Assembly: GCA_963843145.1 (NCBI GenBank)
Contig: CAWJJC010000028.1
Location: forward strand, 192,001-256,000
Direction of reading: 5' to 3'
From: an uncultured delta proteobacterium
GTDB lineage: Bacteria; Desulfobacterota; RBG-13-43-22
DNA: 64,000 bases
Positions within the stretch are counted from its first letter, which is position 1, and each line of letters begins with the position of its first letter. The position numbers and the translations under genes are program-made. Shown one piece after another: positions 2,010 to 62,871 of the stretch. The notes below the pieces were generated by a model. That model was not told the DNA's origin. It searched no databases and saw only the letters and a list, made by a program, of their open reading frames with translations.

Positions 2010-2030
2010 TGTTAATGAGCGGATTACCTG

Positions 2031-3575: not shown

Positions 3576-3585
3576 AATAACCTCC

Positions 3586-3885: not shown

Positions 3886-3905
3886 AACCTTCCCTCCTTT
3901 TAGTT

Positions 3906-4631
3906 TTAGAAATTACTGATTAGTGTCGGCGCCCGGAATCGATCCTCACCTCCTTTGTAGGGGTCGCCAATAGTTACTATATCTGCCAGAGTATGGACCC
4001 CCGACCTTTCCAACCAGGGGAGTAATCGTTGAAATACCTGGGCCGTAAGAAAGGCATCCATCAGGGCGTTATGGGCGCCGCCGATGGGGATGTCGAAAGC
4101 CTTGGCCATTTCGAATAAATCCGGTTTGAGAGGCAGATGGCCGAAAAAGTTTTCGGAAGACCATCTCCGCCAAAGCCACTGATAGAGGATAAAGGTATCC
4201 AGGGCCGGGTTGGTCAACAGGGATCCAAGCCAACGCTTCGTTTCCCGGTTAATAAAATCCAGATCGATGGCCGTGAAGTGACCCACGATCACGTCATCCC
4301 CGCAGAATTTCAGGAATTCCGGGAGGACCGTCTGGATTTCTTTTTCCTGGCTGACTTCCGAGGGTGTAATTTCGTGAACGGCAATCGCGGCATGGCCCAT
4401 CGGGCTGGTGGGTTTCACTAAACTGTAAAACTGATTCCCGAGTTCAATGCGGGCCCGGTTCATCTTCACGGCCCCGATGGAGAGGATCGAATCCCGCTTC
4501 TCATCCAGGCCGGTGAGTTCAGTGTCCACAAAGACATAGGGCACATCCCTTAAGGGACATTGAAAATATCCGGATCCGAAAGAGACCGTTCCGGGTTTGG
4601 AGACCGATTTCTTGAAAAAACTAAATTTCAT
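3906..4631 (-). CDS. DEDDh 3'-5' exonuclease (DNA Pol III epsilon-like)
   Basis: VDTELTGLD, HEIT, HNALMDA motifs. Confidence 0.88.
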   Translation of the reverse strand: MKFSFFKKSVSKPGTVSFGSGYFQCPLRDVPYVFVDTELTGLDEKRDSILSIGAVKMNRARIELGNQFYSLVKPTSPMGHAAIAVHEITPSEVSQEKEIQTVLPEFLKFCGDDVIVGHFTAIDLDFINRETKRWLGSLLTNPALDTFILYQWLWRRWSSENFFGHLPLKPDLFEMAKAFDIPIGGAHNALMDAFLTAQVFQRLLPWLERSGVHTLADIVTIGDPYKGGEDRFRAPTLISNF

Positions 4632-4773
4632 TTGGGCGCAGGGCCGTACCTATAGTTTTCGCCGAAACCCCGGGGCCTGGTCCTCTCTATGACCCGGTCC
4701 CGGGAATTCAGGCTGATCTAGGAATCTGTTTAGTAATGAATAGGGGGATTCTAATCTGGCTGTGAGGTGTGGT

Positions 4774-5088
4774 TTAACAGCGAAGTGCAAATAGACTGCT
4801 TTTAGGGAGAGAGAAAATGACCGAGGAGGAACGCCATTTTCTAAAAAAAGAAAATGCTAAAATCAACAAAACAAGTATCAGGGGATTGATAACAATCAGC
4901 CCTTCACAATCGTTGGCTAGATTTATGGAAAGTGAATTCTCAAAACAAGGGTCGCTACTATAAGAATACTCATCACTGGATGCCGTGGAAGCGTCCAATG
5001 GGGAAAGAAAGCAGAAAAATACAAAACAGAAGATGATCGAAATAGAGGTCGATTTGTTTAGGAAAGGTTTGATTTTCATCATAGGCAT
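4774..5088 (-). CDS. Hypothetical low-GC membrane protein (doubtful)
   Basis: 104-aa ORF with two hydrophobic stretches, downstream of a sigma54-like promoter; no recognisable family. Confidence 0.3.
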   Translation of the reverse strand: MPMMKIKPFLNKSTSISIIFCFVFFCFLSPLDASTASSDEYSYSSDPCFENSLSINLANDCEGLIVINPLILVLLILAFSFFRKWRSSSVIFSLPKSSLFALRC

Positions 5089-5210
5089 TTGTTCAAAATG
5101 GGGGGCCGCGGTTTTATCGGGCCATGACGCCGGTCGAAATATGGCCCTATTCCATTGTCTCGGGAGCTTACGGGCTGTACTTGCTATTCATGATTTATGC
5201 ATCATGAGTT

Positions 5211-5226
5211 AGCAAGCATAATGCCA
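5211..5226 (-). promoter_or_regulatory. sigma54 (-24/-12) promoter facing the acetate cluster
   Basis: Minus strand TGGCATTATGCTTGCT has exact GG-N10-GC spacing, with an AT-rich upstream region. Confidence 0.65.
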
Positions 5227-5541
5227 GGGAAGCCTTCCAATTCGAATTAATTAGTTAACGAATTGATTTTTATCGTTTTATATTTATTTGACCACCTAGT
5301 TTTGTCTTTGGGATGGAAAGTATAACTGGAAAATAGATGTTACTTTTTGTATCATTTTATTGAATTAATATAAATTTTTTATATATATTAATTAGTTAAA
5401 CGATATTACCATAAGTGACAACGGCCAATCGTTTATGGGTAAAAAAGTAACAAAAAATAGAAAGAAGGCATTATCTTTGGACTGAATAGCAAATGATTAT
5501 TGCTTGACAGAAGCCGGATAATGCTAATTAAGGGGCTTTTG

Positions 5542-5737
5542 AAGCCCCAAATGCGTTTGGTTGAGACGCACTGGGTGAGAGGGCTGGTCCGGACTCGAGG
5601 AAGTGACTTGGATCAATAGTTCTGCGAATGGCCTTGTTGAAAACCTATTCCAGGTTGGGGAAAACAGGCCCTGACGAATCCGGAAGAAATTTGAACTTTC
5701 CGCAACCCCCAGGGCCTCAAGGGCCGACGGCTTGGGC
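5542..5737 (+). ncRNA. Candidate structured ncRNA, possibly 6S RNA
   Basis: Nested pairings by eye: agccc/gggct, ttgag/ctcaa, ctggg/cccag, tccggactcg/cgaatccgga, ggcc(t)tgtt/aacaggcc. TTGACA lies ~35 nt upstream. Confidence 0.5.
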
Positions 5738-5743
5738 TAGGTC

Positions 5744-8536
5744 TTACCTGCTCTTATCCGCCGAGCGGGCGGCCAGGACGGCGTGCGCGGCCGCCAACCG
5801 GGCAATGGGTACCCGGTGGGGGGAGGCCGAGACATAGCTGAGTCCTATTTTGTGACAAAAATAAATAGCCTTGGGGTTCCCCCCGTGTTCCCCGCAGATC
5901 CCGATCTTTAGATCCGGTTTGACCTGGCGGGCAAAATCCACGCTGATCATCATCAGCCGGCCGACCCCTTCCTCATCCAGGGTCTCAAAGGGGTTGTCCT
6001 GCAGGATCTGATACTTGTCATAGAGGGGCAGAAACTCCCGCTCGGCGTCTTCCCGGGAAAAGGAGAAGGTGGCCTGGGTCAGGTCGTTCGTGCCGAAGGA
6101 AAAGAACTCGGAGATTTCAGCCAGTTTATTGGCCCGCATGCAGGCCCGGACCACCTCGATCATGGTCCCGAATTTATAAGGAATCTCCACCTGGTAGCGC
6201 TGGCGAACGTCCTCATAAATCGTTTTGACCCGGTCCTTGACCCAGGCCAGTTCTTCGACGACGCCCACCTGTGGGACCATTATTTCCGGGCGCACATCCA
6301 CCCCTTCCTTCAGCAGCTCAGCCGAGGCCTCCAGGATGGCCTGGATCTGCATATCATAGATCTCCGGGTAAGAGATGCCGAGCCGCACCCCCCGATGGCC
6401 CAGCATGGGATTGACTTCGGACACGGCCCGAACCTTCTTTAAGGTCTCCTCCTTGAAGCGCAACAGGTCTTCATCGATTTTCTTTTCCCGTATTTCCGTC
6501 AATTCCCGGCTGACGGCTTCGATCCAGGGGATGTATTTGTGCAGGTTGGGGTCGAGCATTTTAATAGTCTCCGGAAGCTCGAAGATGGTCCGGATGCCCC
6601 GGGAAAAATCCTTCAGCAGGGAAATTTCGGTCATCAGCTCTTCCGCTGAGGGCAGGAACTCATGGATGGGAGGATCCAGCAGGCGGATGGTCACCGGCAA
6701 GCCCTCCATGGCCTTTAAAATATCCTTGAAGTCCTGTTTCTGAAAGGGCATGAGATCCAAGGCCCTCTTCTTCCGGTCTTCGGGGTCGGTGGCCAGGATC
6801 ATGCGCTGGACGATGGGCAGCCGGTCGCTGGCATTGAACATCCGCTCGGTCCGGCACAGTCCGATTCCCTGGGCCCCGTAGCTTCGGGCCTTTCGGGCCA
6901 TCTCCGGCGTATCGGCGTTGGCCATGACCCCCAGGGATCTCAGGTCGTCGGCCCAGCCCAGAAGCTCCAGCAATTCATCCATGAATTCGGGTTCCACGGT
7001 AGGCACTTCGCCGGCGTAGACGGCTCCGGCAGATCCATCGATAGTCAGGATCTCCCCTTCCCGAAAGACCTGGTTGCCGAGATGTACTTCCCGTTTGCTC
7101 AGGTCGATCTCCAGGGCTTCGCAGCCGGCCACGCAGGGCTTGCCCATGCCCCGGGCCACCACTGCCGCGTGGGAAGTTTTTCCCCCGCGGCTGGTCAGAA
7201 TACCCCGGGCGGCAAAAAAACCATGGATGTCTTCCGGTTTGGTTTCTTCCCGGACCAGGAGAATCGGTTCTCCCAACTGGCCCTGGGCCTCGGCCTTGTC
7301 GGCATCGAGGACTATTTTTCCGGAAGCAGCCCCGGGAGAGGCGTTGATCCCGGTGGCTAGAGGGGCCCCCTTATATTTGGGATCGATCTGGGGGTGGAGC
7401 ATCTGTTCCAGGTGTTCCGGTTTGACCCGGAGTATGGCCTCTTCTTCATTGATGAGCCCCTGATGGACCAATTCAATGGAAGTCCGGACCGCGGCCCAGG
7501 CATTCATTTTCCCGTGGCGGGTCTGGAGGCAGTATAGTTTTCCGTTTTCGATGGTGAATTCAAAATCCTGGATTTCCCGGTAGTGATTTTCCAGGGTATG
7601 CCGGAGGGCCTCCAGTTGCCGGTAGACGGTCGGCATTTCCTTGCGCAACTGTCGGAGGGGCTTGGGGGTCCGGATTCCGGCTACGACGTCTTCGCCCTGG
7701 GCGTTGACTAAATATTCGCCGTAAAGATAATTTTCTCCGGTACCCGGGTCCCGGGTAAAGGCCACTCCGGTGGCGCTGGTCTCGCCCATGTTCCCGAATA
7801 CCATGGCCACAATATTGACGGCCGTCCCATTAGCCTGATCGGCGGTGATGTTAAACTCCCGGCGATAGTCCACGGCCCGTTTACCCATCCAAGAACTGAA
7901 AACCGCCTCGATGGACAGTTCCAGTTGTTTGTTCACGTCATTGGGAAATTCCTTCCCGGTTTTTTTCTTGATCAATTTCTTAAACTTTTGGGCCAAGTCT
8001 TTCAATTGGTCCACTTGAAGTTCCGTATCCATCTGGACCCCGGCTTGTTCCTTGCTCTGGTTCATAATCCGGTCAAAATCTTCATCCCCGAGGTTCAGGG
8101 CGATCTTGCCGAAAAGCTGTAAAAAACGCCGGTAGGCATCATAGACGAAACGATCGTTTTGGGTCAATTGGCACAGGCCTTCGGCCGTTTCGTCGTTTAA
8201 ACCCAGGTTGAGAATGGTATCCATCATGCCCGGCATGGACATGGCCGAACCTGAACGGACTGAAACCAGCAGGGGGTTGGTTTTGGAGCCGAAACCCTTG
8301 CCGCTCTTTTTCTCCAGGTCCTCCATATGTGCCCGAACTTCCTCCATCAGGCCCTTGGGCAGCTTTTTATTTTCTTCGAAATACTGAAGACAGGCCTCGG
8401 TGGTAATAACGAATCCGGGGGGGACCGGCAGGCCGATTTGGGTCATTCCGCATAAGTTGGCGCCTTTGCCGCCCAGGAGTTGTTTGTTTTTCCCGTCGCC
8501 TTCTTCAAAACCGAACACGAATTTTTTTCGGGTCAT
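5744..8536 (-). CDS. ppdK: Pyruvate, phosphate dikinase
   Basis: LLGGKGANL, LVSVRSG, GGKTSHAAVVARG (phospho-His), FSFGTNDLTQ, GICGEHGG. Confidence 0.97.
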   Translation of the reverse strand: MTRKKFVFGFEEGDGKNKQLLGGKGANLCGMTQIGLPVPPGFVITTEACLQYFEENKKLPKGLMEEVRAHMEDLEKKSGKGFGSKTNPLLVSVRSGSAMSMPGMMDTILNLGLNDETAEGLCQLTQNDRFVYDAYRRFLQLFGKIALNLGDEDFDRIMNQSKEQAGVQMDTELQVDQLKDLAQKFKKLIKKKTGKEFPNDVNKQLELSIEAVFSSWMGKRAVDYRREFNITADQANGTAVNIVAMVFGNMGETSATGVAFTRDPGTGENYLYGEYLVNAQGEDVVAGIRTPKPLRQLRKEMPTVYRQLEALRHTLENHYREIQDFEFTIENGKLYCLQTRHGKMNAWAAVRTSIELVHQGLINEEEAILRVKPEHLEQMLHPQIDPKYKGAPLATGINASPGAASGKIVLDADKAEAQGQLGEPILLVREETKPEDIHGFFAARGILTSRGGKTSHAAVVARGMGKPCVAGCEALEIDLSKREVHLGNQVFREGEILTIDGSAGAVYAGEVPTVEPEFMDELLELLGWADDLRSLGVMANADTPEMARKARSYGAQGIGLCRTERMFNASDRLPIVQRMILATDPEDRKKRALDLMPFQKQDFKDILKAMEGLPVTIRLLDPPIHEFLPSAEELMTEISLLKDFSRGIRTIFELPETIKMLDPNLHKYIPWIEAVSRELTEIREKKIDEDLLRFKEETLKKVRAVSEVNPMLGHRGVRLGISYPEIYDMQIQAILEASAELLKEGVDVRPEIMVPQVGVVEELAWVKDRVKTIYEDVRQRYQVEIPYKFGTMIEVVRACMRANKLAEISEFFSFGTNDLTQATFSFSREDAEREFLPLYDKYQILQDNPFETLDEEGVGRLMMISVDFARQVKPDLKIGICGEHGGNPKAIYFCHKIGLSYVSASPHRVPIARLAAAHAVLAARSADKSR

Positions 8537-8571
8537 GATCCTTTTCTCCTTGCTGCCGGGGATGGTTGAGG

Positions 8572-8629
8572 TAGATTCTTACATCCATTGTTCTGAGAAA
8601 TTGTCTCTAACAATGGATGTAAGAATCTA
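8572..8629. repeat. 58-bp palindrome (21-bp perfect arms), copy 1
   Basis: tagattcttacatccattgtt-16nt-aacaatggatgtaagaatcta; near-identical copy at 27923. Confidence 0.9.
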
Positions 8630-8779
8630 AATTAAAAGACGTTATCTTTAAATATTTTTGGCTGGTCCTTGACCTTTTATTAAGAGTTTGTTTTTAACTC
8701 ATTTTTGTCTATAATGCAAATATCTTGTTGAATTTTTACCGGGAAATAGGTTATTATCACCGAACCCTAAAGGAAGCGA

Positions 8780-8938
8780 ATGACGACGATGGGTGAGACG
8801 ACCAGGAACGCCGAAGCGGATGACAGCAACCAGGACTGGTTGATTATTTCGATTATTTTCTGGGTCCTTTTTGTTCTAATCGTGAGTATCGGCTATTTAT
8901 CCGATCCCAACTACACGCCCCCCCTGTTTCATCCCTAG
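8780..8938 (+). CDS. Small (52 aa) single-TM protein
   Basis: AAAGGAAG RBS; MTTMGETTRNAEADDSNQDWLIISIIFWVLFVLIVSIGYLSDPNYTPPLFHP. Confidence 0.5.
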   Translation: MTTMGETTRNAEADDSNQDWLIISIIFWVLFVLIVSIGYLSDPNYTPPLFHP

Positions 8939-50937: not shown

Positions 50938-52662
50938 TCAGGGGACGATCAAGGCCAGTAGCCCGGAGAGAATAAAAGTGAATTCCACCAGGGCCTCAAA
51001 ATAAATCCCTCCGGGTAAGGCGTATTTTTTCTCAAAAAGAATCAGGAATAAAAAGAGGTAGGCCGCGGGAAGGAGGAGCCAGAGCCCGAAACCGGGGATC
51101 CGTCCCATCAGGGTGAGCAGAATTAGCAGGGATAAGGTGACGGCGCCCAACCCTTCCAGCAATTTTAAGGTTTTCTTCTCTCCGATCAGGATCGGCAGGG
51201 TTTCCTTGCCCACAATTAAGTCCCCCTGGATATCGAGGATATCAAAAAGGCCGGAGCGAACATAGACCAGGCTGCAGATGATAAACAAAATAAAGAAGAT
51301 ATTCGGATCGGTCCAGGTTTTTTCGGCCAGGACCGGGATCAGGGTGGTGACCCCGCCCCAGCCTAAAGCCACGGACAAGGATTTGGAGGCGGGGATGTCC
51401 TTGATTTTTTTTAATCCGGAAAAATGCCCCCGGGTGGGGAGGATGCGAAAACTGTAAAGGATTCCTAAAATAGTCATGGCCGAAAGGAGCGTAAAAGGGA
51501 GCCAGCCCAAACGCCAGGTAAAAAACAGCGAGAGGACGGCCGCGCCGACACCGGTGGTCATGAAAAGTCCTCGATGCCGCTGGTAGAGGAGAGAGCGATC
51601 CGGGTCGTTGTATTCGGCCGCTTCGGTATCCAGGAGGTGATTCAGGATGTGCAGGGCATAGATATGGAGAAAGGTGATGCTAAAATAGAGGCCGCTCAAG
51701 GGCATCTGCCGGAGCCGGGAAGAGGCCAGGCTTAAGCCGGCGGCTCCCAGGGCCACCAGCAGGTTGCCCTTTAGAAGGATCCGGACCAGGTTGAAAAGGA
51801 TGGCCCGTAAGGGGGAAACGCTTTGGCTGCGGATGGATTCCACTTCCTGGACTACTTTTCGGATCATCCAATTGGGCGTCGAAGCCCCGGCCGTGACCCC
51901 GATGGTTTTCATCCGGCTTAATCTTTCGCGGTCCACTTGCTGTTCCGATTCCACCTGGTCGCAGGAGGTGCCGACCGAGCGGGCGATTCCTACCAGACGC
52001 CGGGTATTCCCGCTGTTAAACCCTCCGACCACCACCAGGCCGTCCACCTCCCGGGCCAACTGCCGGACCTCTCGCTGGCGTTCATGGGTGGCGTTACAGA
52101 TAGTATTGAAGACCTTCAGGTCGGGATAGCGGCGTGCTAAGGCCTCAACCACCTGCTGAAAGAGGGTTTCGTCCTGGGTGGTCTGGGCTACTACGATCAC
52201 CCGGTCTAAAGGGGGCAGTTGCTCCAGTTGCCGGAGATCGGAAATGACGATCCCTTTATCTTCAGAGTAACCCAGAAGCCCGATGACTTCGGGATGATCC
52301 TGATCCCCGACGATAATGGGGGTGTAGCCCTCCTCGGCGTAGCGTTTGATAATGGCCTGGACTTTGATGACCCGAGGGCAGGTGGCGTCGATGACCCGGA
52401 AGCCGGCCTGTTCGAGTTTTTCAAATTCCTGAGGCGGAACGCCGTGGGCCCGGATGATCACCGTCCCCGGTTTTTCAACGGAAGGGTCGCCCAGAACCGT
52501 AATCCCTTTTTTCTCCAGCATGCGCAGGACCTGGGGATTGTGGATCAGGGGGCCGTGGGTGTAAATAGGATCCTGGTGGCGGTGGGCGGCCTCCAGGACG
52601 ATTTCCATGGCCCGTCGCACCCCCATGCAGAACCCGGCGGTTTTAGCTAAGCGGACTTTCAA
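50938..52662 (-). CDS. ispH: HMBPP reductase IspH fused to a UbiA-like membrane domain
   Basis: GFCMGV, IHN, DATCP, NTICNAT, GASTP; C-terminal multi-TM region with DILDIQGD. Confidence 0.92.
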   Translation of the reverse strand: MKVRLAKTAGFCMGVRRAMEIVLEAAHRHQDPIYTHGPLIHNPQVLRMLEKKGITVLGDPSVEKPGTVIIRAHGVPPQEFEKLEQAGFRVIDATCPRVIKVQAIIKRYAEEGYTPIIVGDQDHPEVIGLLGYSEDKGIVISDLRQLEQLPPLDRVIVVAQTTQDETLFQQVVEALARRYPDLKVFNTICNATHERQREVRQLAREVDGLVVVGGFNSGNTRRLVGIARSVGTSCDQVESEQQVDRERLSRMKTIGVTAGASTPNWMIRKVVQEVESIRSQSVSPLRAILFNLVRILLKGNLLVALGAAGLSLASSRLRQMPLSGLYFSITFLHIYALHILNHLLDTEAAEYNDPDRSLLYQRHRGLFMTTGVGAAVLSLFFTWRLGWLPFTLLSAMTILGILYSFRILPTRGHFSGLKKIKDIPASKSLSVALGWGGVTTLIPVLAEKTWTDPNIFFILFIICSLVYVRSGLFDILDIQGDLIVGKETLPILIGEKKTLKLLEGLGAVTLSLLILLTLMGRIPGFGLWLLLPAAYLFLFLILFEKKYALPGGIYFEALVEFTFILSGLLALIVP

Positions 52663-54749: not shown

Positions 54750-55700
54750 ATGCCTATAATAAGAAAAATTCTGGTTATTAGCACTGCCCTGATGGCTACG
54801 GTCATCATTGGGTTTCTGATTTGGATGAATTTCGCGCCCCAAAAAATGGTTGCAGAGACTATCATTCAATTCCAGCGTACCCGGGCAGGCCTCAAGGCCA
54901 AAGCGATAGAGATTCCGGGATTCCGTGTCGCCTACCTTGAAGGCGGCTTCGGCGATCCCTTAATACTTATTCACGGCAGCGGTGAAGATAAGGACAACTG
55001 GATAGAGGTGTCGAAATATTTAACAAGACACTACCGTGTGATCGCCCCAGACCTGCCCGGCTTTGGTGAGAGCGATAAACCGGCAGGACGTTCTTACGCG
55101 GCGCTGGTCCAAGTGGAGAACGTAAAGGCCTTTGCTCGTGCCTTGGGCCTTAAATCTTTCCATCTCGGAGGCCATTCGCTTGGCGGTAAAATTTCAGCCA
55201 TTTATGCCGCCAAAAACCCTTCCGAAGTAAAGAGCCTCTGGCTGCTGGCTCCGGCCGGGGTGTACTCCTCACAACCGAGCGAGATGCAACAACTTATAAA
55301 CCAGGGAACCAGGATTCCGATTTCCGGCCGGACCTTGAAGGCGTTCGATCAACTGTCTACTTTTGTTATGAAAAAACCTCCTTACCTGCCCCGGCCGGTC
55401 AAAGAACTCCTGATCGAACGCGCTATACTCGATTATGAATTGCATAATAAGATATATGAAGAAATTCATGACGAAGCCTTCGCTCTGGAGGACATCGCCG
55501 AGGAAATAACCATGCCAACCCATATCGTCTGGGGGATTCAAGACCGAATACTCCATCACTCCGGCGCCGATATCCTGGATAGCTTATTGCCGAAATCTTC
55601 CGTATTGATCCTGAAGGGAGTCGGACACGTTCCCATGATTGAGGAGCCCAAACGAGTGGCCGAAGATTATATCGCCTTTAGACAATCGGCTTTAAACTGA
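54750..55700 (+). CDS. Alpha/beta-hydrolase (lipase/esterase), N-terminally anchored
   Basis: LIHG, PDLPGFGES, GHSLGG nucleophile elbow, WGIQD, GHVPMIE. Confidence 0.9.
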   Translation: MPIIRKILVISTALMATVIIGFLIWMNFAPQKMVAETIIQFQRTRAGLKAKAIEIPGFRVAYLEGGFGDPLILIHGSGEDKDNWIEVSKYLTRHYRVIAPDLPGFGESDKPAGRSYAALVQVENVKAFARALGLKSFHLGGHSLGGKISAIYAAKNPSEVKSLWLLAPAGVYSSQPSEMQQLINQGTRIPISGRTLKAFDQLSTFVMKKPPYLPRPVKELLIERAILDYELHNKIYEEIHDEAFALEDIAEEITMPTHIVWGIQDRILHHSGADILDSLLPKSSVLILKGVGHVPMIEEPKRVAEDYIAFRQSALN

Positions 55701-55879
55701 TTGCCTCGCCCTCTTTTTCAAATGCCAGGAAGGAAACAAGAGGGCCTCAGGATGAACAGACTTCAGCCGGGGGCAGAATTGACCGGCCGGGCTAAACGGA
55801 GTTGATTATAACTGAGCTTTATGAGACGATGCCCGTTAATGAGGGTTTCATTACTGTTAATACCAGGTTTGTCGAAACC

Positions 55880-56410
55880 ATGTTTTTCTCCCGTAATACT
55901 GTTTCGCTCTTTTCCTTCCTATTTTTTACCCTGATTCTCGCCCCTCCAGCTTTTGCGAAAGGCGGATCACCCGATCTCCTGGCGGCGAAGGGGAACTCCC
56001 TGGGTCCAGTAGGGCATTCTAACCCGGAAGGCCGGCTCATTTCATTGATAAATCACACCAGAACCAAAATGGGATTGCGGCCCTTGAAGCCTTCCCGACT
56101 TCTGGGGGAAGTGGCTCGGGCCCATAGCCACGACATGAGCGTGAGAAATTTTTTCTCCCACGACAGTCCGGACGGACGGGGTCCAAAGGAGCGATTGGAA
56201 AGGGCGGGATTTTCCTGGAGGGCCTATGGGGAGAATATCGGCTGCGGGCAGGATACCGCGGAGGAAATCCTGCGCACCTGGATGGACAGTTCCTCTCACC
56301 GGGAAAACCTACTGGATCCGGCTTATACGGAAGTCGGCGTTGGCCTGGTCCGGGGCGGCAAATGCTGGACCTACTGGACGGCCTTATTCGCCCGCCCCCG
56401 GGGTCGCTAA
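55880..56410 (+). CDS. Exported CAP/SCP-domain protein
   Basis: ARAHSHDM..FFSH, GENIG, WMDSSSHRENLL. Confidence 0.87.
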   Translation: MFFSRNTVSLFSFLFFTLILAPPAFAKGGSPDLLAAKGNSLGPVGHSNPEGRLISLINHTRTKMGLRPLKPSRLLGEVARAHSHDMSVRNFFSHDSPDGRGPKERLERAGFSWRAYGENIGCGQDTAEEILRTWMDSSSHRENLLDPAYTEVGVGLVRGGKCWTYWTALFARPRGR

Positions 56411-56417
56411 GGGTCTT

Positions 56418-57812
56418 TTAAATCGATTTTTCCTTTAGGATGAGAGGCAAAAGGAAAAAGTTCAGCCCCGTCCCCCCGGTGAATACGTAGGCCTCGCCCC
56501 GGTCGGCCTCACGGCCATCGGCTCCGACCAGAACCGTGTCGCTGCTGATGGCTACCGAAAATCCAAACCTGTCACTGGTGGCTCCGGCGAAGTCGCTCAA
56601 GGCGCTCGTCTGGCCCCGTGTCCCGCTCCAGCCCAAGATGGGCCTGACAAACACGAAGGCCGATCCCTGGTCGGCATTGAGGCCGACGGCGGAGTGGGGA
56701 GCCCCGACCAGGGCGATGTCGCTGCGGATGGCTACCGAAGACCCGAAACCGATCCCAGCGGCACCGCCGAAGGCGGTCAAAATGGCGGTCTGGGATCGGG
56801 CGCCGCTCCACCCGTCCACCGGCCTGGCAAAGACATAGGCCAGGCCCTGACCGGCATTGAGGCCGAGGGCGGAATCAGGTGCTCCGACCAAGGCGGTGTC
56901 GCCGCTGATGGCCACCGAAGAGCCGAAATGATCGCCGGCTCCGCCCCCGAAAGCGCTCAATTCCGCGGTCTGAGACCGGGTGCCATTCCACCCGGCCAGC
57001 GGTCTGGAAAAGACATAGGCCAGGCCCTGGCCGGCATTGAGGCCGACGGCGGAATCAGGTGCTCCCACCAGGGCGGTGTCGCCGCTAATGGCCGCCGAAG
57101 AGCCGAAATGATCTCCGGTGCCGCCGCCGAAAGCGCTTAATTCCGCGGTCTGAGGCCGGGTGCCATTCCACCCGGCCAGCGGCTTGACAAAGACGTAGGC
57201 CAGGCCCTGGTCGGCATTGAGGCCGACGGCGGCATTGGGCGCCCCGACCAGGATGGAATCGCCGTCAATGGCCACCGAAGAGCCAAAGCCGTCGCCGGCG
57301 GCGCCGTCGGAGGCAACCAGTGCGGCGGTCTGGGTTCGGGTGCCGCTCCATCCGGTAATCGGCTTGGTAAAGACATAGGCCAGGCCCTGGCCGGCATTGG
57401 TGCCGAGGATGGCTTTAGGCGCCCCGACCACGATGGTATCGCCGTTAATGGCTACCGAAGAGCCGAAGCCGTCGCCGGCGGCGCTGCCGGAGGCAATCAG
57501 GGTGGCGGACTGAGTTCGGGTGCCGCTCCACCCGGCCGGAGGCCTGACATAGACGTAAGCCCTGCCCGGCGAGGCCGCCCCGACCACGATGGTATCTCCG
57601 CTGACGGCAACTGACCGGCCGAAATGGTCGCTGGCGACCCCGCCGGAGGCGGTCAGTTTGGCGGCTTGGGTCCAGGGGACCGGCGACAAAGCGGCGCCTG
57701 CGCTGGGTCCGCTGCCCTGGGCCGTCCCGGCGGCCCAGGGAGAAAAAACGGAGGCCGTCATAAACAACGTCATGAACAAGAAGAAAAGGCTCAAGCCCCA
57801 TGCTTTTCTCAT
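56418..57812 (-). CDS. Secreted seven-FG-GAP-repeat (integrin-alpha-like) beta-propeller
   Basis: Seven FGxSVAIxGD..VGA repeats with ~180-bp DNA period; signal peptide; C-terminal FLLPLILK. Confidence 0.87.
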   Translation of the reverse strand: MRKAWGLSLFFLFMTLFMTASVFSPWAAGTAQGSGPSAGAALSPVPWTQAAKLTASGGVASDHFGRSVAVSGDTIVVGAASPGRAYVYVRPPAGWSGTRTQSATLIASGSAAGDGFGSSVAINGDTIVVGAPKAILGTNAGQGLAYVFTKPITGWSGTRTQTAALVASDGAAGDGFGSSVAIDGDSILVGAPNAAVGLNADQGLAYVFVKPLAGWNGTRPQTAELSAFGGGTGDHFGSSAAISGDTALVGAPDSAVGLNAGQGLAYVFSRPLAGWNGTRSQTAELSAFGGGAGDHFGSSVAISGDTALVGAPDSALGLNAGQGLAYVFARPVDGWSGARSQTAILTAFGGAAGIGFGSSVAIRSDIALVGAPHSAVGLNADQGSAFVFVRPILGWSGTRGQTSALSDFAGATSDRFGFSVAISSDTVLVGADGREADRGEAYVFTGGTGLNFFLLPLILKEKSI

Positions 57813-57956
57813 CCGGTCTCCTTAACGCCAGGTTGAAATGACCTGTTCGCTCCCCGCCCAGGGAGCGTTCAGAAAATAGTATATTGCTTCATACCTTTTT
57901 GGGCGGGGAAACCCCAACCCAAAAAAATCGGGAAAAATATTTTCCCGATGGCCAGG

Positions 57957-59324
57957 TTATTTTTTCATCGCGCCTCGGATCCGCTCTTTCAACCGGTCCT
58001 GGATACGCAGGAAGGCGTCCACCACATCCGGGTGGAACTGGGCGCCTCGTTCCCGGGCGATGATTTTCACCGCTTCGGCATGAGGGCGTTCGGTCTGGTA
58101 GCAGCGGTCCGAGGTCAGGGCGTCGTAGGTGTCGGCTACCGCCACGATGAGGGCCGATAAAGGAATTTCCTCCCCCTTTAAGCCATGGGGGTAGCCGCCG
58201 CCGTCGTAGCGTTCATGATGGAAGAGGGCGATTTCCCGGCCCATGGCGATGAAGCTGGCCTGCCCCAGCTTTTCATCCATATCGCGCAGCGCCTCTCCCC
58301 CGATAGAGGTGTGGCGTTTGATGGCCTCGTATTCCTCGGCGGTGAGCGGGCCCGGTTTGAGGAGGATGGCGTCCGGAATCGCCACTTTGCCCAGGTCGTG
58401 CAGGCTGCAGGAGTCGGTCAGGTTGTCCACAAATCCGGCGTCAATCCGGCCTTGGTATCTCTGGTCCCGCCCCAGTTCCAGGGCGATTTCCCGGCAGAGG
58501 GTGCGGATTCGATCCAGATGCTCGCCGGTATATTTATCCCTGGAGTCGGCCAGTTTGGCCAGTCCGAATATCGTCGCCTGCTGGGTCTTCAACTGAACCT
58601 CCTGCTGTTCCTCCAACTGTTTGACCTTTCGGACCAGGGCCTGCTGTTTCTTATCCACCAGGACTTCCAGAGAACTGGAGTGCTCCCGTAGCATGGCCTG
58701 CACCCCTTCCAGGTCCACCCGCAGCAGATACTCTTTCCAACGGAGGCGCATATTGGTATGGGCGCCCACGTAGGCGATGACCAGGGTCGCGACGACGAAA
58801 AGGTTGTTGGCCAGGAAAACAAAGTCATAATGGGGCCAGTTTATAGTCAGCGTCAAGGTCAAATAGATCGCGTAGAGCACCAGGGTGTGCAGCAAGGTGC
58901 GACTGGCCCGGACCGGGAGGAGGAGGCAAAAACCTATGAACACCAGGTTCAACCCGGCATAATAGGGGGTGGATAAGCTGTCCAGGTTCAGGATCATCAT
59001 GATGATGATCCCTCCGACCAGGTAGAAGGCCGTCAATCCCAGGTAAAAACTCTGGTCGCCCCATTCCCGGGAGCGGTTAACGGCCCAGAGGATCAGGCAG
59101 CCGCCGGAGGCAATCATCCGATAGACCAGGAAAGTCCTCCATTGGGCCGGGTAGAGGAAATAATCCAGCAGGGCGAAAAGAGGCACCAGAAAGACTCCCA
59201 GCAAGAGGATGACGTCCACCCGATGACGAAGGAGGGGAGTCAGGTCTTGATAAAAACGCGAAACCTGTTCCGGATTCGTTTCGGTGGTCTTCCAATCTTC
59301 GAAAAAAGATTTGCTGAGTACGAT
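57957..59324 (-). CDS. Multi-TM sensor + HD-GYP phosphodiesterase (start uncertain: ATC 59324 or GTG 59219)
   Basis: TGEHLDR, HDLGK, HHERYDGGGYP, ADTYDAL..R; N-terminal TMs with LDY..YP and PYYAGLNLV. Confidence 0.88.
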   Translation of the reverse strand: MVLSKSFFEDWKTTETNPEQVSRFYQDLTPLLRHRVDVILLLGVFLVPLFALLDYFLYPAQWRTFLVYRMIASGGCLILWAVNRSREWGDQSFYLGLTAFYLVGGIIIMMILNLDSLSTPYYAGLNLVFIGFCLLLPVRASRTLLHTLVLYAIYLTLTLTINWPHYDFVFLANNLFVVATLVIAYVGAHTNMRLRWKEYLLRVDLEGVQAMLREHSSSLEVLVDKKQQALVRKVKQLEEQQEVQLKTQQATIFGLAKLADSRDKYTGEHLDRIRTLCREIALELGRDQRYQGRIDAGFVDNLTDSCSLHDLGKVAIPDAILLKPGPLTAEEYEAIKRHTSIGGEALRDMDEKLGQASFIAMGREIALFHHERYDGGGYPHGLKGEEIPLSALIVAVADTYDALTSDRCYQTERPHAEAVKIIARERGAQFHPDVVDAFLRIQDRLKERIRGAMKK

Positions 59325-59339
59325 GGGTTCCTCCTCAGG

Positions 59340-60872
59340 CTAAAGTGGCGCGGCCGTTTTACGGGCGATCAGGAAAAGGTTGACCCCTTCCGGTTCGGAA
59401 TAAACTTCCACCTCGGCACCGAAAGGCGTGTCGGCCAGAAGGCTGCGGAGCTTCTCCGGATCGCGGTGAATCAGCTTCCATTGCAACAGATGATCCATGA
59501 AGGCCCGATTGGGGTTTCCGGGTCCGAAGTTTCCGGCCACAAACACCCCGCCCGGCTTGAGGTATTCAGAGGCTCGGCGGGCCAGGGCCTGGAAGAGATG
59601 ATCCTCCAAGTAGTCGGTCAGGCCGGCCGAGTAGATAAAGTCCAGGGGGCCAAAGGGATGCTTTTCCCGGCCGATGATCCAGCGGAGCACATCGGCCTGC
59701 ATAAAACGAATGACGGCCTGGTGGGAAAAGACATTGACCTTTTGATGGGTAAATTCCAGCGCCTCGGGGTCCGCATCCAGGCAGATGGCCTCGACGGGAG
59801 CCGGGTCCGTTCTTTCACCCAGGAAGTCAAATAGTTCCCGGCAGGATCCGCAGGCCAGATTGAGGATGCGCATGCTCTCCCGCCGGGAAGCCAGGCGGGC
59901 GGCCTCCTGTTCCAAAAGTTTTTTGAGCAGGCTCCGCCGGCCGCGCACCGCCCGGGCGGCCGAGGTGTTCAGGCACCATTGGTCCACCAGTCCCCCCAGT
60001 CGTCCGTCTCCTTGGGGCCGGTTGGCGTAAATCATTTCCATCATCTGAAAATCGCCGGCGTAGCCCTTCGGTTTATAGTAGGCCCGCTCCGCGAAGCGAC
60101 TGCGCATAAAGTAGGGAAAAATCTCTTTAAAGACATATCCCCAAAAAGGGCCCTCCAGGTCGTGGCCCTCAATCGAACGGCGAAGATCCTCCAATTCCGT
60201 GTTGAAGTGGTCCAGGATGATCTGACAGCGTTCCTGGAAAGGCTCCGGGGGTGATCCCTCCGGGAACTTTTGGAGCCGAATGGACAGGTCAAATAAGTCG
60301 GCTTTAAAGGTTTCCACCAACTGGTTAACCTTCGGCCAAAAGGGGCTTTGAAAGGAGCGAGCCGTCAAGGCCTCGGATTCCTGAAAAGACCGACGGCCGG
60401 TGGAAAGGGCCGCGGAGTAGGCCACCAGGGGTTCCCGCTCCTCGAGGACCCGTCGGAATTTGGCGCAGATTGATCGGGCCAGCAGGGTGACAAAGGCGCT
60501 GTAGAGGGCCGGGGCCCGGTTCTTCATTTCTTCCATGGATTCCTGATCCCAGGTCCGGATGACCGAGTCTTCCGTGGCTCTCAAGGTGCGGACCCGAGAA
60601 TGGTGGTCGAAGAAACCGATTTCCCCGAAAAGTTCGCCGGTTTTGATAAAGGCCACGATGATGGCCTTTTCCAAACCACCGTAAGTTACTTCCACAGTTC
60701 CAGACTCGACATAATTGAGGTTAAAGGCCTGGCTCCCCTCGGTCATAATTACCTCATATTTCGAATAGGGAAGAGGCCGGGACCATTCGATCAATGCCTG
60801 CCAGGTGAGCGGATCGCTCCCCAATCGCCGAGAGGGGGAATCCTCCCTCGTGATTTTCGCGGTGTTGGTCAT
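59340..60872 (-). CDS. cNMP-binding domain + PhcB-like SAM-dependent methyltransferase
   Basis: GELFGEIGF..R (cNMP); KPKGYAGDF, LNLACGS, DFIYSAGLTDYL, GNF. Confidence 0.82.
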   Translation of the reverse strand: MTNTAKITREDSPSRRLGSDPLTWQALIEWSRPLPYSKYEVIMTEGSQAFNLNYVESGTVEVTYGGLEKAIIVAFIKTGELFGEIGFFDHHSRVRTLRATEDSVIRTWDQESMEEMKNRAPALYSAFVTLLARSICAKFRRVLEEREPLVAYSAALSTGRRSFQESEALTARSFQSPFWPKVNQLVETFKADLFDLSIRLQKFPEGSPPEPFQERCQIILDHFNTELEDLRRSIEGHDLEGPFWGYVFKEIFPYFMRSRFAERAYYKPKGYAGDFQMMEMIYANRPQGDGRLGGLVDQWCLNTSAARAVRGRRSLLKKLLEQEAARLASRRESMRILNLACGSCRELFDFLGERTDPAPVEAICLDADPEALEFTHQKVNVFSHQAVIRFMQADVLRWIIGREKHPFGPLDFIYSAGLTDYLEDHLFQALARRASEYLKPGGVFVAGNFGPGNPNRAFMDHLLQWKLIHRDPEKLRSLLADTPFGAEVEVYSEPEGVNLFLIARKTAAPL

Positions 60873-61296
60873 AAGGCGCCCATTTCTGTCGGTTTTTTCC
60901 CTCCCATATAGCCTGAAGGGCTGCGGGAGGGGAAAGTTTTGTCTTCACTTTTTATTATCTGACAGGAAGGTAGAGAAGATGAAAAATAATATGTATCCCT
61001 AACCATTATCGGAATAATCGAAAAAAAAATAAATGTAAATCCTTAATTTTTTTTGAGGATGACGGGGAAGTAAAAAAGATCTTTAATTTACAATGGTTAC
61101 ACAATTTTTAGGGTCCAAGCCGATAAAACCTCCATCGATATCAGGCCGGTGAACCTAGAGGGAATGATTCCCTTCTTCCTTGACCCTCCAGAGGAAACGG
61201 CGTACAGTTCCATCCGTTGAAAACCCTTTCGCCGAGACGCGGCATTCATCCCCGGTAGAGGGGTATCCACCCCGGAGGACGAACCGTAATAAAAGT

Positions 61297-62871
61297 ATGG
61301 CTAAGACTAATTCCGTAGAGATCAACGAGCAATTTCAACGGGCCCTGGACCTGATGGAGAAGACCCAGCGGCAGGTCTTCATCACCGGCAAGGCGGGAAC
61401 GGGCAAATCCACACTGCTTGATTATTTCCGGAGAACCACGAAAAAGAAAGTGGCCGTGCTGGCGCCCACCGGAGTGGCCGCCCTCAACGTTCAGGGCCAG
61501 ACCATCCATTCATTCTGCGGATTCAAACCGAATATATCTCTGGAAAACGTCAAAAAGATTGCCCGCAAGGACAGTCCCCGGGCGGTTCTCCTTCGGAATC
61601 TGGACACCCTGGTAATCGACGAGATCTCCATGGTCCGGGCCGATCTCCTGGATTGCGTGGAAAAATTCCTGCGTCTCAACGGGCCCCGGTCCTCCCAGCC
61701 GTTCGGGGGACTCCAGATGATTCTAATCGGCGATCTGTATCAGCTTCCTCCGGTCCTCACCTCGGCGGAAAAAACCGTCTTCAGCCTTCACTATGAGACG
61801 CCCTACTTCTTTTCCGCCCATATTTTGAATGACCCGGAGTTCAACCTGGAATTGGTGGAACTGGAGAAAATTTACCGGCAGACCGATGCTGATTTCATCG
61901 GTTTGTTGAATGCCATCCGCAACCGCTCGGCGGACGAGGAGGACCTGACCCGTCTGAACCGTAATTGCAACCCGGCCTTTGTCCCCCCGGAGAACGAATT
62001 TTACATTTACCTGACCAGCACCAACGATCAGGCCCTGACGCGGAACCGGGAAAAGCTGGGCCGTCTGCCCGGCCGATTTTATACCTATGAGGCTACGGCC
62101 CAGGGGGATTTTGAACGCTCCGCCTATCCGACCGACGAGCACCTGGAAGTGAAGCGGGGGGCCCAGGTCATGCTTCTGAACAACGACTCCCTGGGCCGCT
62201 GGGTCAACGGCTCGATCGGCCGGATTGTTAAAATTCATCGCCAGGCCGACGGGGAAGATCGTATCGAAGTGGAATTGCCCAGCGGCCGGAGGGTGGAGGT
62301 AACGCCCTTCCGCTGGCAGATTTTTCGTTTTGACTATGATTCGGAGGCCAAAAAGATATTTTCGGAGCCGGTGGGATCTTTTACTCAATATCCCCTCAAA
62401 CTGGCCTGGGCCATTACCATTCATAAGAGCCAGGGGAAGACCTTCCCCAAAGTGGTCATCGACATCGGTCGCGGCACCTTTGCCCACGGCCAGATTTATG
62501 TGGCCTTGAGCCGCTGTACCGGGCTTGAGGGGTTAATCCTCAGCCAGCCCATCCGGAAACAGCATATCCTGATGGATTACCGGGTAGTGAATTTCCTGAC
62601 GCGTTTTCAATATCAAAAGGCCGAGGAAAAGCTGTCCCACCAGGAAAAGGTGCTCCTGGTCAGAGAGGCGATTGCGCAAAAAGGGGATCTCGATATCGTT
62701 TATCTGAAACCGGACGACACCAAATCCCGGCGCCGCATCCGTCCGGAAGCCTTTGGGCCGATGGAGTACCAGGGAAAGGCCTTTGAGGGCCTGCGGGCCT
62801 ACTGTTATGAGCGGAAGGGCCAGCGGACCTTCCGCCTCGACCGGATGCTGGAAATTACCCGGACCGGGTAA
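61297..62871 (+). CDS. Pif1-family SF1B helicase with C-terminal WYL-like domain
   Basis: GKAGTGKS, IDEISMV, GDLYQLPP, AITIHKSQGKT, YVALSR; tail RRIRP..RAYC..RTFRLDRM. Confidence 0.9.
   Translation: MAKTNSVEINEQFQRALDLMEKTQRQVFITGKAGTGKSTLLDYFRRTTKKKVAVLAPTGVAALNVQGQTIHSFCGFKPNISLENVKKIARKDSPRAVLLRNLDTLVIDEISMVRADLLDCVEKFLRLNGPRSSQPFGGLQMILIGDLYQLPPVLTSAEKTVFSLHYETPYFFSAHILNDPEFNLELVELEKIYRQTDADFIGLLNAIRNRSADEEDLTRLNRNCNPAFVPPENEFYIYLTSTNDQALTRNREKLGRLPGRFYTYEATAQGDFERSAYPTDEHLEVKRGAQVMLLNNDSLGRWVNGSIGRIVKIHRQADGEDRIEVELPSGRRVEVTPFRWQIFRFDYDSEAKKIFSEPVGSFTQYPLKLAWAITIHKSQGKTFPKVVIDIGRGTFAHGQIYVALSRCTGLEGLILSQPIRKQHILMDYRVVNFLTRFQYQKAEEKLSHQEKVLLVREAIAQKGDLDIVYLKPDDTKSRRRIRPEAFGPMEYQGKAFEGLRAYCYERKGQRTFRLDRMLEITRTG

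Follow-up and report, generated by a model that had tools for sequence, protein, structure and literature searches.

A putative Phc-type signal synthase and receptor gene pair carrying cyclic-nucleotide-binding and HD-GYP domains in an uncultured Desulfobacterota bacterium

The window analyzed here, 64,000 nt of contig CAWJJC010000028.1 (positions 192,001 to 256,000) from an uncultured delta proteobacterium, contains two neighboring genes that we read, at a probability of roughly 55%, as a Phc-type cassette made up of one synthase gene and one receptor gene, with the signal chemistry, the gating by a cyclic nucleotide monophosphate (cNMP), and the control of the phosphodiesterase all putative. 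The first gene encodes a cNMP-binding domain joined to a methyltransferase core homologous to PhcB, and the second a six-transmembrane (6-TM) sensor homologous to that of a PhcS-type kinase, joined to an HD-GYP domain. Knowledge of quorum sensing is sparse for strict anaerobes such as sulfate reducers and syntrophs, and the window offers a concrete putative synthase-receptor pair from this setting.

Organization of the locus

Both open reading frames (ORFs) lie on the minus strand, 120 nt apart (Table 1), in agreement with the adjacent, co-oriented pair described in the initial annotation. The spacer shares a frame with both genes and comprises 40 sense codons with no ATG, GTG, or TTG, and a GAGGAGGAA motif and, after it, ATC are kept in five of five clade members. 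Given also that proteins of close relatives (P0122, P0128, P0124, and P0130) start within the equivalent of this spacer, it probably codes for additional N-terminal residues of the sensor protein, the start codon of which is uncertain. An Rfam scan of positions 55500-61500 returned nothing near threshold, and covariation contributed almost nil to a consensus fold of the spacer (-0.14 of -14.51 kcal/mol).

Table 1. Features of the gene pair and their positions in the window.
Feature	Position	Strand	Basis
cNMP-binding + PhcB-type methyltransferase gene (putative signal synthase), 510 aa	59340..60872	-	ORF, Pfam, 30-homologue alignment, AlphaFold2
6-TM sensor / coiled coil / HD-GYP gene (putative receptor), 420 aa	57957..59219	-	ORF, Pfam, homologues
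Cyclic-nucleotide-binding domain, aa 36-117 of the methyltransferase protein	60522..60767	-	PF00027 (cNMP_binding), E 3.9e-13
Helical linker + SAM-methyltransferase core, aa 184-510, common to the PhcB family	59343..60323	-	hhalign, BLASTP
Spacer, 120 nt, between the methyltransferase and sensor genes	59220..59339	-	Sequence, relatives' starts
PhcS-type (MASE8-like) 6-TM sensor domain, aa 1-160	58740..59219	-	Hydropathy, invariant residues, profile match
Helical/coiled-coil linker, aa 161-220	58560..58739	-	Coiled coil assigned by inspection only
HD-GYP domain, aa 221-399	58023..58559	-	PF13487 (HD_5), E 3.8e-28
Terminator-like hairpin, 10 pairs then T run, directly 3' of the HD-GYP stop	57927..57949	-	Consensus scan, pattern match only

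Other genes near the pair encode an FG-GAP protein, a CAP-family protein, a hydrolase, and a PIF1-like helicase (Pfam). The FG-GAP gene (56418-57812) corresponds to the neighboring "adhesin" that the circuit had been proposed to control, and we rejected it as a part of the system: it is present in one of 12 related loci (L004), locus L001 has no FG-GAP gene between the HD-GYP and CAP genes, locus L002 has no FG-GAP match, and the terminator-like hairpin stands between it and the pair. The interpretation given in the initial annotation is, overall, partly supported, with the homologies, the intact motifs, and the conservation of the pair upheld and the adhesin link not.

For expression, four RNA-library runs, drawn from four studies, supplied contigs that were compared with positions 57900-60900 at an 88% threshold. 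Matches were found for 27 pieces from close relatives, distributed over both genes (three less than 90% alike, none as much as 99%), and two of these run from the 3' end of the methyltransferase gene to about 70-77 nt into the spacer. None of the 27 joins the methyltransferase gene to the sensor gene. As such libraries can hold DNA, these matches are no proof of transcription or co-transcription.

The synthase and receptor compared with PhcB and PhcS

Besides the cNMP-binding domain, Pfam recognized Methyltransf_20 in the 510-aa protein (aa 277-394, E 8.7e-12). The motifs first noted in its translation (RAYYKPKGYAGDF, AVRGR, and IYSAGLTDYL) are all present, in columns that are invariant or nearly so across 30 homologues. 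In the cNMP-binding domain, G83, E84, and R93 are likewise invariant in the 30 homologues; R93 aligns with the phosphate-binding Arg of the PKA regulatory subunit and of mycobacterial Pat, and the phosphate-binding cassette has its Gly-Glu and Arg, although Val follows the cassette Arg where Ala or Thr is usual. An AlphaFold2 model of the protein (mean pLDDT 82.7) gave as its best fold match the uncharacterized Bordetella protein 3ocj (TM-score 0.59 on the target), and neither a characterized close structural relative of the methyltransferase nor a solved structure of any family member emerged from the structure searches.

Comparison with PhcB and PhcS was made via stand-ins for the Ralstonia proteins, namely a phcBSRQ-like operon on a Paraburkholderia graminis plasmid (methyltransferase, kinase, and two response regulators) and relatives of PhcB named in Cupriavidus. 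By BLASTP, the methyltransferase shares 31% identity over 259 aa with the Paraburkholderia phcB-like gene product (E 8e-34). Against 27 Burkholderiales relatives, hhalign returned a probability of 100% (E 8.2e-39, 315 columns, query 184-510, template 173-501); these 27 include a 90% cluster with members that were deposited under the name 'PhcB' of Cupriavidus necator N-1. The KP.GY.GD, A.R.R, and AGL.DYL motifs are invariant in the window-family and Burkholderiales alignments alike, and the resemblance to PhcB proposed at the outset is borne out, as homology, for the methyltransferase core. JGI already labels many homologues with the KEGG PhcB name, and the label is not new to databases for this family.

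The N-termini differ. A PhcB-specific domain of about 170 aa is absent from the window protein, which has the cNMP-binding domain there instead. The PhcB-specific domain includes R22, invariant in the Burkholderiales relatives and the residue altered in the published phcB R22C mutant, as described in PMC6989110. That the Burkholderiales N-domain is a diverged PilZ or cNMP-binding domain was also considered and gained no support, as hhalign aligned the core alone and Pfam found nothing. Because identity is about 27-31% and the N-terminal domain differs, the substrate may differ from that of PhcB. A full match to the PhcB type would entail methyl 3-hydroxymyristate or methyl 3-hydroxypalmitate as the product, and we know of chemistry, binding, or enzyme assays within this family for Ralstonia and Cupriavidus members only.

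A different role for the enzyme would be the methylation of the receptor or another protein in the style of CheR adaptation, with no small-molecule signal. Some family members do give weak, sub-threshold CheR matches, one Paraburkholderia member was named a 'CheR-type MCP methyltransferase' by its depositor, and an enzyme and its substrate might well show the strict adjacency, and in one case the single open frame with the sensor, reported below. We nevertheless consider this very improbable, given that every CheR match is below the Pfam cut-off, fold matches are to small-molecule methyltransferases (e.g., SgvM, DsyB, the CurJ C-methyltransferase, and CmoA), and PhcB, with which the core shares homology, makes a known small molecule according to PMC6989110.

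In the 420-aa receptor, a hydropathy scan placed six hydrophobic segments within aa 1-154. The LDY..YP and PYYAGLNLV motifs noted at the outset are present and conserved among homologues, and the invariant residues of the sensor domain include D19, Y86-L90, and N138-N139; the linker that follows has conserved R160, E163, and R167 and a heptad-like charged stretch. The MASE8 model (PF20968) matched aa 18-171 at 16.9 bits, below its cut-off of 26.2 (model version.2), and the Paraburkholderia kinase scored 17.6 bits, also below the cut-off, with both weak matches spanning the whole model. MASE8 reached E 0.001 or better in only 10 of 87 representatives, and relatives of the receptor carry a precomputed PF20968.4 assignment.

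Direct comparison of the sensor domain with the Paraburkholderia kinase gave E 3e-6 by BLASTP, with LDY..YP and YYAGL aligned, and a 95.2% probability by hhalign (E 2.6e-8). A broad profile built from 146 representative sensor domains matched the kinase over aa 29-212 with 146.5 bits (E 6.4e-45), against a best E of 0.033 among a background of 191 open frames of the window, the gene's own frame excluded. The proposed likeness to PhcS thus stands, as homology between the TM domain and the sensor of the phcBSRQ-like operon kinase. A plasmid search with the Paraburkholderia sensor had the Paraburkholderia record itself as its sole match, and one with the window's sensor domain had none. On a Rhizobium plasmid, a methyltransferase (29% identity) adjoins a GGDEF-EAL protein, the N-terminus of which did not match a narrow sensor profile (probability 0.2%) and matched the broad one weakly (16 bits, E 6.4e-5); we regard these neighbors as a lead.

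Pfam found neither HisKA nor HATPase in the receptor, and HD_5/HD instead. Its HD-GYP domain is intact, as had been claimed, with HD at aa 274 and HHERYDGGGYP at aa 334, and the HD, RH, HHE..DG.GYP, and D..DAL positions align with those of solved, active HD-GYP enzymes. The best solved relatives are the c-di-GMP phosphodiesterases PA4781 (4r8z, E 7e-46) and PmGH (4mcw, E 2e-32), and the host genome has 19 GGDEF matches, along with six to class III cyclases. Both the relatives and the GGDEF matches make it distinctly unlikely, in our view, that the output is something other than c-di-GMP hydrolysis, i.e., that the domain acts on 3'3'-cGAMP or another nucleotide or mainly via protein contacts. 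In favor of such an output, the cGAMP-specific V-cGAP3 (5z7c, E 1.6e-24) is among the solved relatives, and HD-GYP proteins are described as hydrolyzing cGAMP and acting via protein interactions (bioRxiv 10.1101/2021.11.05.467447).

Conservation and modularity of the pair

In 11 of 12 related loci, the gene immediately downstream of the methyltransferase gene encodes the sensor domain, and an orthologous pair occurs in the cultured strain NaphS2 (86% and 89% identity). A sample of 301 genomes from the phylum had the methyltransferase in 27 and the sensor domain in 36. In 19 of these 27 genomes, spanning 11 families, the genes stand side by side on the same strand, a degree of conservation far beyond chance, although these 19 genomes do not amount to 19 independent events because kin share synteny by descent. 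All 18 loci fetched upheld the adjacency. The methyltransferase occurs without an adjacent sensor gene in 8 of the 27 genomes, and the sensor domain without the methyltransferase in 13 of the 36.

What accompanies the two conserved parts changes from locus to locus. The 20 partner proteins in these loci comprised 12 hybrid kinases, five HD-GYP proteins (four with PAS), one SpoIIE/PP2C protein, one PAS-GGDEF protein, and one fusion, in which sensor, PAS, GGDEF, and methyltransferase form a single open frame in one genome. The N-termini of 16 methyltransferases carried a cNMP-binding domain in six cases, PilZ in seven, and neither in three. The conserved link is between the methyltransferase core and the 6-TM sensor domain, not HD-GYP, and these two form the evolutionary unit, with interchangeable inputs (cNMP-binding or PilZ) and outputs (kinase, HD-GYP, GGDEF, or PP2C).

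That the genes are neighbors by descent only, serving unrelated pathways, might be argued from the many loci that come from related lineages and from a link known from genomes alone. The adjacency, however, holds across 11 families of the phylum and in the Burkholderiales despite variation in gene order, output domain, and synthase N-terminus; the methyltransferase core and sensor domain stay constant throughout and are joined in one open frame in one genome. We find this explanation extremely improbable.

A coupled pair could also serve an internal purpose, the product being an internal or membrane-state cue (e.g., a methyl ester that conveys the state of fatty-acid or lipid metabolism) within an intracellular relay from cNMP to c-di-GMP. 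The synthase inputs (cNMP-binding and PilZ) and receptor outputs are all intracellular, the sequence bears no sign of export or density-dependent accumulation, and the sensors that lack a synthase would suit such a role, although they fit eavesdropping equally. Weighing on the other side, membranes would be no barrier to a hydrophobic methyl ester, and the PhcB product of characterized relatives is secreted and active from outside at nanomolar levels, as far as the accounts in PMC6989110, PMC11960443, and PMC8578825 go. We hold a purely internal cue to be rather unlikely.

The sensor family is large, with 2228 representative clusters at E 0.001 or better, and the pairing with the methyltransferase suggests a ligand class for what is otherwise an orphan sensor domain. 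Second messengers may also directly regulate PhcB-type synthases, a question that extends to PhcB itself.

Proposed mechanism and comparison with known systems

In the synthase-receptor reading, the methyltransferase would draw on SAM to produce a small, hydrophobic, methylated compound, which by analogy would be a fatty-acid methyl ester, with the enzyme's activity set allosterically by cAMP or cGMP at the N-terminal domain, as in other enzymes with a cNMP-binding domain. The product would partition into the membrane and bind within the 6-TM domain of the receptor, and the helical linker would relay the change to the HD-GYP domain, so that c-di-GMP, or a related cyclic dinucleotide, is hydrolyzed faster or more slowly. 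The direct target of perception would then be a second messenger, and neither a kinase nor a response regulator nor a PhcA-type transcription factor would be involved; the product may act between cells (quorum sensing) or on the producing cell alone. Any feedback loop would need a further step to close it in this variant, since the input is a cNMP and the output c-di-GMP.

More broadly and more tentatively, with the odds somewhat against it, Phc-type signaling, rather than being confined to Ralstonia and its kin, could form a modular family of circuits that is widespread in anaerobes and runs on self-made signals, in which a second messenger (a cNMP here, c-di-GMP via PilZ elsewhere) gates the synthase and the cognate membrane sensor writes directly onto another messenger or a phosphorelay. 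Cell-to-cell signaling in the window would then link a cNMP straight to c-di-GMP without a transcription factor, and lineage-specific pairs might act as chemical dialects in sediment communities.

Our literature search of papers found none on cNMP-binding or PilZ fusions of PhcB, on PhcS with HD-GYP, or on PhcB homologues in Deltaproteobacteria, although supplementary tables such as PMC10653808 Table S5 on phc distribution may hold relevant entries. The closest known system is Phc of Ralstonia and Cupriavidus (phcBSRQ and PhcA), in which a homologous methyltransferase core adjoins a gene with a homologous 6-TM sensor; the synthase-then-sensor order is the same in the Paraburkholderia operon and the window. 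The window synthase, however, begins with the cNMP-binding domain in place of the PhcB-specific N-domain, its sensor ends in HD-GYP where PhcS-type proteins end in HisKA/HATPase, no PhcR- or PhcQ-type receiver genes lie near the pair in the window, and the host belongs to the Desulfobacterota, as an anaerobe related to strain NaphS2. The phc cluster is restricted within the Betaproteobacteria in the text of one survey (PMC10653808), and the pair extends two core parts of Phc into another phylum, beyond the range given there.

The DSF/Rpf system of Xanthomonas offers a functional parallel, in that a diffusible signal of the fatty-acid type leads to HD-GYP-mediated c-di-GMP turnover, as outlined in PMC3749722; for the window, such a signal is putative. 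The window sensor and HD-GYP domain form one polypeptide and its synthase is a methyltransferase. In Rpf, by contrast, the RpfF synthase is a crotonase, and the RpfC kinase signals to a separate REC-HD-GYP protein, RpfG. The N-terminal domain of the window synthase, finally, matches those of the mycobacterial acetyltransferase Pat (4oll, E 3.1e-5) and of Bdellovibrio Bd1971, a cNMP-binding and EAL protein (6hq3, E 1.2e-4), both regulated by such a fused domain, and shares with them the cassette residues Gly-Glu and Arg; the enzyme fused to the domain in the window is, in contrast, a PhcB-type methyltransferase.

Domain architecture of the methyltransferase and HD-GYP genes

The methyltransferase and HD-GYP genes were found as co-oriented open reading frames on the minus strand, separated by a 120 nt gap (Table), in agreement with the initial annotation, whose quoted motifs were all recovered in the translations and all fall in conserved columns of the homologue alignments. 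Besides the tabulated Pfam domains, generic SAM-methyltransferase models matched the 510-aa protein, while a hydropathy scan of the 420-aa protein placed six hydrophobic segments inside aa 1–154, followed by a charged helical stretch.

Table. Features of the window and of related loci (locus coordinates for the latter)
Feature	Position	Strand	Evidence
Methyltransferase gene, 510 aa	59340-60872	minus	ORF
Cyclic-nucleotide-binding domain	aa 36-117 of 510-aa protein		Pfam, E 3.9e-13
Methyltransf_20	aa 277-394 of 510-aa protein		Pfam, E 8.7e-12
Spacer, 120 nt	59220-59339	minus	
HD-GYP gene, 420 aa	57957-59219	minus	ORF
MASE8, weak match	aa 18-171 of 420-aa protein		Pfam, 16.9 bits vs cut-off 26.2
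HD_5	aa 221-399 of 420-aa protein		Pfam, E 3.8e-28
10-pair hairpin, then T run	57949-57927		pattern match only
FG-GAP gene, secreted-looking, seven FG-GAP_2 repeats	56418-57812	minus	Pfam
PIF1-like helicase, C-terminal WYL domain	61180-62871	plus	
574-aa ORF	50938-52662	minus	
L001 HD-GYP gene, two pieces	7654-8912		
L012 methyltransferase gene, two pieces	4229-6759		
L015 methyltransferase and GGDEF-EAL genes	1766-4978		
L032 single 852-aa open frame	1125-3683	minus	

Among 30 aligned homologues, residues G83, E84, R93 and R95 of the cNMP-binding domain are invariant, and R93 aligns with the phosphate-binding arginine of the PKA regulatory subunit and mycobacterial Pat (one matched Pat entry has lysine at this position). 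Among solved structures, this profile was closest to domains of PKG, PKA and CRP and to the one that binds cNMP in the EAL enzyme Bd1971. An AlphaFold2 model (mean pLDDT 82.7, pTM 0.76) predicts an N-domain folded as a beta-barrel, long helices, and a core of Rossmann type, the top fold match of the predicted core being an uncharacterised Bordetella protein (3ocj) and the remainder small-molecule methyltransferases. These model-based matches do not reveal the substrate; with small-molecule enzymes making up the remaining matches, we regard methylation of a protein as distinctly unlikely.

The HD-GYP domain, described as intact in the initial annotation, does carry HD at aa 274 and HHERYDGGGYP at aa 334, and its metal-binding and GYP positions align with those of three solved enzymes, the c-di-GMP phosphodiesterases PA4781 (4r8z, E 7e-46) and PmGH (4mcw, E 2e-32) and the cGAMP-specific V-cGAP3 (5z7c, E 1.6e-24). 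With both specificities among its relatives, action on a nucleotide substrate other than c-di-GMP can be envisaged, and we consider it unlikely.

The spacer comprises 40 sense codons in frame with both genes, with no stop, and contains no ATG, GTG or TTG in the window or in four clade members. In L007 and L010, two relatives with a proper start, the N-terminal extension is homologous to the last third of the spacer, SRFYQDLTPLLRHR; among close relatives, three different protein starts fall within the spacer (P0122; P0128; P0124 and P0130), and the GAGGAGGAA motif, with ATC five bases later, is conserved in five of five clade members. Given these observations, the receptor may begin with a non-standard codon lying upstream of 59219. 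Substitutions in the spacer lack third-position bias (variable sites at the three codon positions: 11, 7 and 8), and a 1-nt insertion breaks the frame in L004, one of the related loci. A hairpin and T run directly follow the HD-GYP stop, and the same scan, likewise a pattern match only, flagged no hairpin between the two genes.

Relationship of the core and sensor domains to Phc proteins

Many homologues of the methyltransferase bear, in JGI, the KEGG name of PhcB, 'extracellular factor (EF) 3-hydroxypalmitic acid methyl ester biosynthesis protein', which is a label rather than a test. For comparison with PhcB we used, as a stand-in for the Ralstonia protein, a Paraburkholderia graminis plasmid locus found when plasmids were searched by tblastn with the methyltransferase part. 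Its gene order, a methyltransferase (468 aa), a histidine kinase (445 aa) and response regulators (134 aa and 344 aa), follows a phcBSRQ-like layout. The P. graminis methyltransferase is 66–69% identical to 463-aa Cupriavidus proteins, one 90% cluster of which includes deposits named 'SAM-dependent methyltransferase PhcB' from Cupriavidus necator N-1 and 'Ralstonia pickettii DTP0602'. R22, the residue changed in the Ralstonia phcB R22C mutant, is invariant in our alignment of 27 Cupriavidus/Paraburkholderia-type proteins; the report on that mutant places it outside the methyltransferase domain and notes its conservation across homologues from Ralstonia, Cupriavidus and Paraburkholderia (PMC6989110).

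By BLASTP, the window protein shares 31% identity with the P. graminis methyltransferase over 259 aa (E 8e-34), with KP.GYAGD, A.R.R and AGL.DYL in register. A profile–profile comparison of 30 window-type with 27 PhcB-type proteins gave a probability of 100% (E 8.2e-39) over 315 columns, covering window aa 184–510, while the N-terminal parts did not align. The likeness to PhcB proposed in the initial annotation is therefore borne out, on sequence grounds and via Paraburkholderia and Cupriavidus relatives, for the core (helical linker plus methyltransferase), and the regulatory N-terminus is different.

The proposed likeness to PhcS also proved to reflect homology at the domain level, here to the Paraburkholderia kinase, which is PhcS-like by operon context. 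The HD-GYP protein (aa 9–185) aligns with the Paraburkholderia kinase (aa 32–209) at 23% identity (BLASTP, E 3e-6), with LDY.(V/L)YP and (F/Y)YAGL in register, and a 10-sequence sensor profile matched this kinase with an hhalign probability of 95.2% (E 2.6e-8). A profile of 146 representative domains scored it at 146.5 bits (E 6.4e-45, aa 29–212), against a background of 191 window open frames in which the sole match besides the gene's own frame had E 0.033. MASE8 matches both proteins alike, weakly and over the whole model. Judged by these alignments, homology of the window 6-TM domain to the sensor of the phcBSRQ-like operon kinase holds.

Against 1.84 billion representatives, the sensor profile matched 2228 clusters with E values of 0.001 or below, 922 of them at 1e-10 or below. 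In the best 150 matches listed, the domain occupies an N-terminal or near-N-terminal position, and just one of them has it starting beyond residue 62. Scanning the best 87 of these 150 identified HisKA in 54, HD_5 in 10, GGDEF in 2, MCPsignal in 2, SpoIIE in 1, and MASE8 (E 0.001 or better) in 10.

Conservation of the pair and exchange of its inputs and outputs

In 11 of 12 related loci the gene immediately following that for the methyltransferase encodes the sensor domain, the exception being L006; in L003 it ends with the contig after 163 residues, in three Syntrophorhabdus loci the match is confined to the first ~200 residues, and in L008 the partner is a sensor-PAS-HisKA-HATPase-REC protein. 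The nearest named relative is Delta proteobacterium NaphS2, whose methyltransferase and HD-GYP protein are 86% and 89% identical, the remainder being uncultured Deltaproteobacteria/Thermodesulfobacteriota and Syntrophorhabdus. In L001, the closest relative, the HD-GYP gene matches as two pieces that overlap near residues 44–58 and differ in frame (through a frameshift or a faulty assembly), and in L012 (Syntrophorhabdus aromaticivorans UI) the two matching pieces of the methyltransferase gene are separated by ~1 kb, as though something had been inserted.

Across 301 genomes sampled from the phylum, the methyltransferase-core and sensor profiles detected the core (E 1e-10 or better) in 27 and the sensor (E 1e-4 or better) in 36. 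The two are adjacent on one strand in 19 of the 27, spanning 11 families (own genome included), upholding the proposed conservation of the pair; four carry the sensor elsewhere and four have no sensor match, one of these at a contig edge, and 13 of the 36 sensor genomes lack the methyltransferase. Adjacency was confirmed at the ORF level in all 18 fetched loci, two of which duplicate L004 and L011. We estimate that chance alone would bring the two genes within 1 kb of each other, on one strand of a 4-Mb genome, about 1 time in 4000, although related genomes are not independent cases. Mere synteny of the two genes, beside this recurrent adjacency, appears very improbable.

The 20 sensor proteins at the 18 loci carry various outputs: 12 are hybrid histidine kinases (some with PAS), four are PAS-HD-GYP (two loci, two tandem copies each), and one each has HD-GYP joined directly to the sensor, a SpoIIE/PP2C phosphatase, PAS-GGDEF, and, in L032, a single sensor-PAS-GGDEF-methyltransferase frame. 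Of 16 methyltransferase N-termini scanned, six are cNMP-binding, seven PilZ, and three neither. At all four loci with HD-GYP outputs (window included) the methyltransferase matches the window's cNMP-binding type, confirmed by Pfam in three; the fourth, L016 (the L004 record), matches window aa 2–507 at 85% identity. The seven PilZ-type methyltransferases (L024–L030), with PilZ at the N-terminus, are all paired with sensor hybrid kinases, which suggests c-di-GMP-gated versions of the synthase. The methyltransferase core and the sensor domain thus form the constant unit, around which inputs and outputs are exchanged, as would be expected of a synthase and its receptor.

The L032 frame comes from a metagenome-assembled genome and could reflect either a genuine fusion or misassembly; in the same-genus L031, sensor-PAS-GGDEF and a short PhcB-type methyltransferase are two genes 81 nt apart. 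On Rhizobium plasmids (L015), a 345-aa methyltransferase 29% identical to the window core is divergent from a GGDEF-EAL protein whose membrane N-terminus weakly matches the broad sensor profile (16 bits, E 6.4e-5).

The adhesin that the initial annotation proposed as a controlled output found no support, the FG-GAP gene being present in only one of the 12 related loci (L004). There, as in the window, it lies between the HD-GYP and CAP-family genes, with the window's CAP-family and hydrolase genes beyond it; in L001, whose methyltransferase is 98% identical, these two genes directly follow the HD-GYP gene and FG-GAP is absent, and L002 gave no FG-GAP match. It is therefore a variable insert. 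The PIF1-like helicase, divergent from the methyltransferase gene, is kept beside the pair only in L001 and L004. The start of the 574-aa ORF resembles IspH/LytB by eye and precedes a long multi-pass membrane part, which would be an unusual fusion.

Proposed signalling route and known systems

Building on the domain homologies, intact motifs and conserved pairing established here, we infer a route, to which we assign a probability of roughly 0.55, in which a cNMP bound to the N-domain would set methyltransferase activity, the product would be a hydrophobic methylated molecule bound within the membrane by the 6-TM domain, and the helical linker would then alter HD-GYP activity and hence c-di-GMP. 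The window's contig (no. 28 of 32) belongs to a 5.35-Mb genome in which Methyltransf_20 and the sensor domain each matched once, class III nucleotide cyclases six times and GGDEF 19 times, so that the host cell could plausibly signal through cNMP as well as c-di-GMP. The feedback loop suggested in the initial annotation has no visible closing step in the window variant because the input is a cNMP and the output c-di-GMP; it would be more natural in the PilZ-type relatives.

In the characterised relatives, PhcB is required to make methyl 3-hydroxymyristate or methyl 3-hydroxypalmitate, which PhcS senses (PMC6989110, PMC11960443, PMC8578825). Set beside this precedent, a methylated product serving as an internal cue, not a signal between cells, is possible but doubtful. 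Our literature search found no paper on cNMP-binding or PilZ fusions of PhcB homologues, nor on a PhcS-type sensor joined to HD-GYP, and a preprint that takes a census of HD-GYP proteins refers to MASE8 just briefly. The methyltransferase and sensor cores are common to Phc and the window pair, whereas two defining features of Phc, the PhcB N-domain and the PhcS kinase transmitter, are missing from the latter, which is therefore a variant, rather than a member, of the PhcB/PhcS system.
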